30,927 nt of DNA from Escherichia phage ESSI2_ev129. Shown here piece by piece: positions 14,296 to 14,532 of this stretch. Under the pieces are notes generated by a model. The model was not told the origin of the DNA and made no database searches. It saw only the letters and a list, made by a program, of their open reading frames with translations. How positions within the stretch are numbered: the first letter of the stretch is position 1; every line of letters begins with the position of its first letter. The position numbers and the translations under genes were made by a program. The stretch lies in sequence record NC_049394.1, one strand, 5' to 3'.

Positions 14296-14532
14296 TTACT
14301 GCTCAGTATTAAAAGTGTGCGTATGTGCACCACTCAGAGAATGGCTATGTGCACCCACGGTATGGGTATGTGCACCACCCAGAGAATGGCTATGTGCACC
14401 CACGGTATGGGTATGTGCACCACCCAGAGAATGGCTATGTGCACCCACGGTATGGGTATGTGCACCACCCAGAGAATGGCTATGTGCACCCACGGTATGA
14501 GTATGAGAACCTTGTAAATGGCTTTCTTTCAT
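14296..14532 (-). CDS. His-rich tandem-repeat mini-protein (8 HxH motifs; function unknown)
   Basis: 78-aa ORF MKESHLQGSHTHTV(GAHSHSLGGAHTHTV)x4..; ATG 14530-14532 lies 6 nt after the TAA of the small terminase gene, with AAGGAT upstream. Body is the 45-bp x4 tandem repeat. Confidence 0.5.
   Translation of the reverse strand: MKESHLQGSHTHTVGAHSHSLGGAHTHTVGAHSHSLGGAHTHTVGAHSHSLGGAHTHTVGAHSHSLSGAHTHTFNTEQ
14321..14500. repeat. Near-perfect tandem repeat, 45 bp x 4
   Basis: Unit GTATGTGCACCACCCAGAGAATGGCTATGTGCACCCACGGTATGG at 14321, 14366, 14411 and 14456; only two single-base differences among the four units. The unit is a multiple of 3, so reading frames are preserved. Confidence 0.9.

Follow-up and report, generated by a model that had tools for sequence, protein, structure and literature searches.

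In the T4 fibre protein gp37, the His-x-His (HxH) motifs of three chains coordinate a line of Fe2+ ions on trimerisation, and the resulting needle is six-stranded because every chain doubles back (PMC8174754; PMC12609058). HxH motifs of three chains also enclose an Fe ion at the apex of the P2 spike protein gpV (bioRxiv 10.1101/2023.02.25.529910). Here we analysed the 30,927-nt sequence of Escherichia phage ESSI2_ev129 (NC_049394.1; the window, with positions counted on the given strand), in which a regular HxH repeat makes up a 78-amino-acid (aa) mini-gene lying between the head genes M and L. The new element is the fibre-needle HxH repeat as a free-standing accessory protein of variable length, which is rare and dispensable. 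With a probability of roughly 0.55, we read the mini-gene as a real, late-expressed optional cargo gene of ESSI-2-like (Quadragintavirus) P2-type prophages, whose product would form a gp37-like metal-bound oligomer. The features on which this reading depends are as follows.

14296–14532, minus strand: HxH-repeat mini-gene, 78 aa, with nine HxH motifs spaced 7 or 8 residues apart and conserved termini (N-terminal MKESHLQG, C-terminal HTFNTEQ); identified from the open reading frame (ORF) listing, PF03335, structure 2XGF and 13 intact alleles.
14321–14505, minus strand: coding tandem repeat, 4.1 copies of a 45-bp unit at 98% identity, the unit encoding HTHTVGAHSHSLGGA; identified by Tandem Repeats Finder (score 356) and a ladder of alleles with one, two and four units.
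14533–14546, minus strand: translation start region, with a Shine–Dalgarno (SD)-like AAGGAT over the last codons and stop of M and an A-rich CAACAA leader; identical in all carriers.

The repeat protein and its alleles

The array reported by Tandem Repeats Finder (period 45) is by far the strongest in the window, the runner-up, in the fibre gene, scoring 118. The initial annotation, made from the sequence alone, had described a near-perfect 45-bp repeat within this minus-strand ORF, and the present analysis bears it out. Over the region 14100–14800, the minus strand reads ...ACACAAGGATAA CAACAA ATG AAA GAA AGC CAT TTA CAA GG..., followed by the repeat and then ...TTT AAT ACT GAG CAG TAA. The AAGGAT (14546–14541) overlaps the stop codon TAA of M (14541–14539), the ATG (14532–14530) begins 6 nt past that stop, and the mini-gene ends with TAA at 14298–14296. 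The arrangement proposed earlier, a start codon 6 nt after M, behind AAGGAT and between M and L, was thus confirmed by reading the sequence and by the Pfam matches of the two neighbours (PF05944 and PF05926). The GC content of the mini-gene is not atypical, at 0.50 compared with 0.515 window-wide.

The encoded protein has the layout MKESHLQ-GSHTHTV-(GAHSHSLGGAHTHTV)x3-GAHSHSLSGAHTHTF-NTEQ. Nine HxH motifs were counted, in GSHTHTV, the three perfect 15-aa units and the variant fourth unit, rather than the eight given previously. Histidine accounts for 19 of the 78 residues (24% of codons), with CAT used for 18 of the 19; 61 residues are H, G, S, T or A, and hydrophobic core residues are almost absent. 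The ORF is delimited by the stop of M and its own stop, and holds no collar or any further domain.

A search of domain families revealed a match to PF03335 (Phage_fiber repeat) with 29.8 bits against a cut-off of 20 (E=4.4e-7), and no other match in Pfam or NCBIfam. Of the solved structures, the T4 gp37 fibre tip (2XGF) matches best, although weakly (E=0.043). The module consensus over all alleles is G-A-H-x-H-x-V, with the HxH motifs regularly spaced by 7 or 8 residues. An exhaustive HMMER search of 1.84 billion representatives returned 62 hits in all, the top long matches being fibre-like proteins with a Collar or Gp10_C domain and alternating 7/8-residue HxH arrays. A word-indexed search with the 78-aa protein returned one candidate and its profile version seven, all of the same family or P0015, a 54-aa protein described below. 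Eight short HMMER matches (P0054, P0059, P0007, P0025, P0019, P0016, P0026 and P0014) were set aside, as they resemble spurious ORFs over unrelated minisatellites. In the literature searched (Quadragintavirus, ESSI2_ev015, HxH and iron in tail fibres, PF03335 and the P2 M–L terminator), nothing was found on free-standing HxH proteins or on the M–L spacer.

Two further proteins, P0005 (234 aa) and P0034 (178 aa), contain very long single-pass HxH arrays (in P0005 about 20 motifs with a strict 7-residue spacing), followed by a C-terminal domain of about 90 aa. P0034 matches the C-terminus of phrog_4311, annotated as 'minor head protein', and no solved structure resembling either protein by sequence was found.

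The mini-gene was recovered in 17 independent records, comprising complete genomes, IMG/VR contigs, metagenome contigs and protein-index entries. These correspond to 13 distinct proteins of 32–82 aa, all in intact frames. All carriers have the same ATG, the same SD and the same N-terminus, and end in HTFNTE(Q/H); the scan pattern did not fix the start codon, and every match nonetheless had ATG. Alleles of the window type form a ladder of 33, 48 and 78 aa, corresponding to one, two and four 45-bp units, while the others mix 21- and 24-bp modules, for a range of 3–10 HxH or YxH modules. The gene therefore behaves as a coding variable-number tandem repeat whose alleles differ by whole units (21, 24 or 45 bp), in agreement with the earlier suggestion that near-identical units signal recent expansion or contraction. 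A phase-variable on/off switch was considered and rejected, since all units are multiples of 3 and 13 of 13 alleles are in frame.

Short-read assembly is prone to errors in near-perfect 45-bp repeats, which raises the alternative that the repeat was expanded or collapsed by the assembler. However, the exact 78-aa protein, which occurs once in the public gene index, lies on a complete 5.2-Mb chromosome (CP057617.1), a different four-unit 78-aa allele is present in a second complete genome (L004), and the discrete one-, two- and four-unit alleles come from independent assemblies. An assembly artefact is the least credible of the explanations considered here.

A broken ORF or a lost start codon in relatives, named in the initial annotation as evidence against a real gene, was found in none of the 17 records. 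One further copy (L193:1501-1623, Logan ERR3330526 contig 71) is truncated: the phage sequence stops inside the repeat after the third HxH module, with unrelated DNA beyond. On this contig M adjoins the replication (GPA) gene and no gpL was called downstream. The truncation is the end of a whole-prophage decay or deletion, or an assembly chimera, and not a specific inactivation.

Pooled over the alleles, the ratio of nonsynonymous to synonymous polymorphism (pN/pS) is lower in the annotated frame (0.45) than in any of the other five (0.63–2.34). For two pairs of alleles with the same architecture the ratio is about 0.24, derived from only 4 synonymous and 3 nonsynonymous changes in one pair and 1 of each in the other. 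Across 27 distinct 21-nt modules, G-A-H-x-H-x-V is retained despite many synonymous changes, with Gly encoded by GGT, GGC or GGG, Ala by GCA, GCT or GCG, Thr by ACC, ACG or ACT, His by CAT or CAC, and Ser by AGY and TCT. The preservation of the frame is in itself weak evidence, given that every unit has a length divisible by three and that stops are almost absent from the antisense frames. Taken together, the codon-level pattern favours, without proving, a translated and constrained protein.

These data bear directly on a different explanation, namely that a needle-coding fragment of some fibre gene was captured by illegitimate recombination beside a fortuitous SD, with slippage keeping the frame, and has no function. 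The unstable copy number, the antisense frames that are almost as open as the sense frame, and the copy in L193 that marks a prophage deletion end-point are all compatible with such a neutral passenger. The intact frames in 17 of 17 records, with start and SD conserved, and the lowest pN/pS in the annotated frame argue against it. Weighing these points with those given below, we consider a neutral passenger unlikely, while still deserving serious attention.

The junction between M and L

To place the mini-gene in its genomic context, its neighbours and the spacer that follows it are listed here.

14539–15243, minus strand: terminase small subunit M, the upstream neighbour (PF05944, 1e-39; phrog_74, 1e-71).
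14199–14295, minus strand: M–L spacer of 97 nt with nested helices, in which P1 GGCGGAC (14278–14272) pairs with GTCCGCC (14220–14214), followed by a U-tract and then the SD of L; the mini-gene stop abuts its 5' edge.
13746–14198, minus strand: head completion or head–tail adaptor protein L, the downstream neighbour (PF05926, 5e-39; phrog_71, 5e-45).

Assignments with Pfam and PHROGs give the gene order O (scaffold)-N (capsid)-M-x-L-R-S, where x is the mini-gene; farther downstream, the tail genes do not resemble those of P2 (DUF2586 sheath). The nearest named phages are ESSI2_ev015 and ev040 (Quadragintavirus, family Peduoviridae). The M–L intervals of the 80 nearest viral contigs were then surveyed, with the following outcome.

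Spacer only, 94–98 nt: 73 of 80 contigs.
HxH mini-gene: 4 of 80 contigs.
Unrelated 64–65-aa ORF, phrog_8618: 3 of 80 contigs.

Each interval holds either a clean spacer or an intact cargo ORF, and no decayed remnants were found in the 80. Among 5,426 complete E. coli genomes the mini-gene is present in 5, always after gpM, and 25 carry this prophage type across the junction. Searches elsewhere were negative: tblastn against plasmids gave no match, a scan of GTDB species-representative genomes with a 5' pattern gave 0 hits, and a scan with a 3'-end pattern gave no loci beyond those from the 5' pattern.

Carriers and empty-site relatives align base for base up to the last codons of M and again from the first base of the spacer, so that what was inserted is the ORF alone, with its SD provided by the end of M. 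At the junction, M ends in ...KLTTQG in carriers and in ...KLTQG in empty-site relatives. Neither a sigma-70-like promoter nor a terminator-like site was found beside the mini-gene, and its expression is therefore expected only with the late operon, by presumed co-transcription. Carriers are interleaved with empty-site relatives, M being 97–98% identical between them. Such a rare and patchy distribution among close relatives, and an insertion without flanks, are also what a captured fragment without function would leave behind.

The unrelated phrog_8618 ORF (annotated 'L33', 63–65 aa) fills the same point after M in ESSI2_ev015 (L001:896-1093), ev040, ev239 (L111:714-905), L064, L065 and L100. 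It occurs in other Quadragintavirus and Evevirus phages, and its stop likewise abuts the 5' edge of the spacer. The M–L slot is a hot spot for the exchange of small cargo genes; in ESSI-2-like and P2-like phages the gap serves as a swap site for small late-expressed genes, and neither PHROGs nor NCBIfam has a family for the mini-protein.

P2-type head operons had been expected to run from M to L with nothing in between. This stands insofar as most relatives lack a gene there, but the interval is filled by a conserved structured spacer of about 96 nt. In an alignment of 22 distinct sequences, RNAalifold revealed compensatory double changes in 10 of 23 pairs. Within the spacer 98.4% of cells are paired, compared with 31–46% in slid controls, and the observed values were not attained by any of 500 shuffles. 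The single-sequence fold is no better than shuffles (z=-0.7), and the structure is revealed by comparative analysis only. Rfam has no match for the spacer region. P2 has an analogous hairpin and U-tract in its 99-nt M–L gap. The three alternative upstream ORFs (M, phrog_8618 and HxH) all stop exactly at the 5' edge of the spacer, which may act as an internal terminator or attenuator of the late head operon.

The proximity of a histidine-rich ORF to this structure suggests another possibility, that the mini-gene is a leader ORF whose 19 His codons, placed before the U-tract spacer, make the transcription or translation of L and of the genes beyond it depend on charged tRNA-His, in the manner of attenuation of the his operon. 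Its stop immediately adjoins the 5' side of a terminator-like structure that shows covariation, its codons are 24% His, and, whichever state the locus is in, an ORF (that of M, phrog_8618 or the HxH gene) ends at this same point. However, the structure is conserved without the mini-gene in 73 of the 80 relatives, and the His codons are dispersed, the last one lying 6 codons before the stop. The stop is itself 17 nt from helix P1, which a stalled ribosome would not reach. In a related phage (L029, below) the HxH ORF is downstream of the structure, and in phage FLC10 it is at another position of the operon; the non-His residues Gly, Ala and Val are conserved as in fibre needles. We judge regulation by such a leader to be very improbable.

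As an unrelated observation, the DUF6890 gene beside the tape-measure gene (window 9393–9825 and relatives) is annotated as 84 or 195 nt (27 or 64 aa) in otherwise similar prophages, which may reflect an inconsistency in the annotation of a start site or frameshift.

The tail fibre and HxH mini-genes elsewhere

The same phage encodes a fibre with HxH motifs, the relation of which to the mini-gene was analysed at the DNA and protein levels.

3754–5328, minus strand: tail fibre, with an N-terminal tail-collar fibre domain, a collar and a T4 gp37-type needle (PF12571, PF07484, PF03335 and alignment with gp37).

The needle has six HxH motifs with a 9-aa spacing, at aa 392–500 of 524 (nt about 3829–4155), and the fibre ends in the gp37 C-terminal sequence. 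The GAH(S/T)HTV motif, previously placed at the C-terminal tip of the fibre, is hence not at its extreme C-terminus. A gp37-type HxH fibre is present in every member of the group, whether carrier, empty-site relative or phrog_8618 carrier. Comparison of all alleles of the mini-gene with all fibre variants revealed no DNA similarity, the longest common word being 16 nt, and the mini-gene is therefore neither a recent internal copy nor a plausible donor cassette for the fibre.

The idea that the mini-gene serves as a recombination partner for diversification of the fibre needle, or is a recent intragenomic copy of the fibre tip, draws on the GAHxH(T/S)V motif common to the two genes and on the mosaic fibre C-termini among relatives. 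Against it stand this lack of DNA similarity, the different repeat periods (7/8 aa and 9 aa), and a presence or absence of the mini-gene that does not track fibre type. It is largely refuted, and we assign it scarcely any weight.

In the empty-site prophage L015, the fibre C-terminal sequence (from residue 371) and the Tfa protein (WP_074519689.1) are identical to those of the carriers L016 and L019. Because an empty-site phage has the same fibre-needle sequence and Tfa as carriers, the mini-gene is dispensable for fibre assembly, and an essential fibre chaperone was rejected on the same ground. This dispensability also suits a passenger without function. The repeat number does not track the fibre either: the 33-aa and 78-aa alleles are paired with fibre C-termini that differ at 2 of 155 residues. 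A fibre-tip mimic in the sense of receptor binding, one of the earlier suggestions, was rejected as unlikely, since the mini-protein has only the shaft (needle) repeat and no gp37 head domain.

Two observations on other HxH proteins of these phages were made in passing. The fibre C-termini are mosaic (window and L014–L022): the part that separates the ascending from the descending HxH strands, presumably the receptor-binding head, is wholly different from one close relative to the next, whereas the HxH strands themselves and the final ~25 aa are conserved, in two length classes with 6 or 7 HxH motifs. A spike-like 567-aa protein of the window (232–1935, minus strand; weak Phage_base_V and Gp5_C matches) has a single HSH (...CANHSHPTVG...) in its C-terminal ~35 aa, near nt 336, which recalls the Fe apex of P2 gpV.

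HxH-only ORFs were also found at two other positions in Peduoviridae. On contig L029, P0015 (54 aa, MMNNKNNNVCTHNHAVGAHTHSLGGTHSHTPGVHTHSLGGTHTHTLGAHTHEQA) lies between M and L of a P2-like phage whose L is 58% identical to that of the window and whose M C-terminus is 52% identical. Here the ORF is at the opposite edge of the spacer, between the SD and the ATG of L, downstream of the structure. The insertion is present in 0 of 63 relatives, including one with L 99% identical, and is therefore recent. The repeat has the same 45-bp, 7+8-aa architecture, with ~82% DNA identity to the window unit (a manual count over one 45-nt unit pair), and the termini differ. Repeat cores this alike between phages with flanking proteins at 52–58% suggest that the ORF moved as a unit, which speaks against a neutral passenger.

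In Burkholderia phage FLC10, of another Peduoviridae genus, an 89-aa HxH-repeat ORF, preceded by a good SD and containing a DNA tandem repeat of its own, is found between the genes for the tail tube and the E/E' chaperones (L009:3968-4237; LC667452.1 18359–18628). The deposited annotation, gp25, has 56 aa from a later ATG, and probably misses the first third. The protein scores 17.2 bits against PF03335, below the cut-off, and tblastn with it against phages recovered only itself.

The late operons of Peduoviridae have thus gained an HxH-only mini-gene, whether newly arisen or acquired, on at least three occasions, and each time it occupies one of the few intergenic gaps. That such ORFs recur in at least three places, in late operons of different members of the family and always with a start and SD of their own, argues against a neutral passenger. 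On a broader and more speculative view, which we think improbable as a whole and raise tentatively, HxH-only mini-proteins would constitute an unrecognised accessory class, namely self-assembling, metal-stapled trimeric needles with a length tuned by slippage, repeatedly acquired by Peduoviridae late operons (the two M–L placements and FLC10). Their role would lie in the biology of the virion, where they might, for instance, supply or buffer metal for the HxH sites in the fibre and spike, or form an additional fibre associated with the particle.

Proposed assembly and comparison with known systems

Reading the mini-gene as a late-expressed cargo gene implies the following pathway. A bare ORF inserted between the stop of M and the structured spacer would be co-transcribed with the late head operon. 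Its G-A-H-x-H-x-V repeat would act as in T4 gp37-type fibres, in which three chains surround a line of Fe2+ with six His per ion. Since the mini-protein has almost no hydrophobic core residues, it would be expected to fold only when several chains, probably three, assemble around divalent metal. By homology, this would give a short needle-like rod with a length that follows the repeat number. From the repeat we infer that the mini-protein may bind metal. Our best guess for its role is an accessory late protein with an effect that scales with the number of metal sites, through metal buffering or association with HxH parts of the virion, and not a receptor-binding mimic. The range of 3–10 modules that is tolerated speaks against a structural part with an exact fit, and suits a dose or capacity function, or near-neutrality.

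Several points weigh against this pathway. The 32-aa allele with three motifs cannot double back as the six-stranded gp37 needle does. The HxH spacing is 7/8 here and 9 in the fibre of the same phage, and the match to the solved structure is weak. A single-chain AF2 model has a low mean pLDDT of 60.6 and only short beta strands. Indels of repeat units hold the frame automatically, so that the intactness of the alleles is weaker evidence than it looks; the selection signal derives from few substitutions, and may in part have been passed down from an ancestral fibre gene. The rarity of the mini-gene suits a near-neutral passenger. Finally, metal supply is unlikely to limit the burst, as we estimate that a few thousand Fe atoms are needed and a cell contains ~1e5–1e6.

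If the mini-protein does self-assemble around metal, it would be a minimal natural form of the fibre needle fold, so far seen only inside very large, chaperone-needing fibre proteins. Its natural alleles with 3–10 sites would then provide a ready series for the study of folding and metal binding in HxH stacks, and possibly a scaffold for length-programmable metal–peptide rods. As a neutral passenger, it would be a curiosity and a strain-typing marker only.

Among known systems, phage morons resemble the mini-gene in being present or absent at a fixed intergenic point among near-identical phages. Classical morons have their own promoter and terminator and are expressed in the prophage, whereas no such signals are detectable for the mini-gene. 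Hpn of Helicobacter pylori is a small, very His-rich, multimeric metal-storage peptide, the capacity of which would scale with its His content. No sequence relationship between Hpn and the mini-protein was found, and the regular fibre-type repeat implies an ordered structure, not a loose chelator. The apex of P2 gpV has one site at the end of a large spike protein, and the mini-protein is like it only in the tripeptide.

A close described relative is the needle of T4 gp37 (PF03335), which has the G-x-H-x-H-x-(V/I/L) repeat in common with the mini-protein. gp37 has in addition an N-terminal attachment region, a collar, a receptor-binding head and a C-terminal return strand, all of which the mini-protein lacks. 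The two also differ in size (32–82 aa compared with 500–1000 aa for gp37-type fibres), in motif spacing (7/8 residues compared with 9) and in location, the mini-gene being optional and in the head-gene block, whereas the gp37-type needle is encoded in the tail-fibre block. Closer in spacing are the Collar/Gp10_C fibre-like proteins P0002, P0008, P0009 and P0012, with single-pass arrays, which have the same 7/8 HxH array (for example ...GAHSHGLNSHTHSVGAHSHGLN...) at no more than 65% identity to the mini-protein over the array. In these proteins the array is flanked by a collar/Gp10_C domain and a C-terminal region, whereas the mini-protein consists of the array alone.

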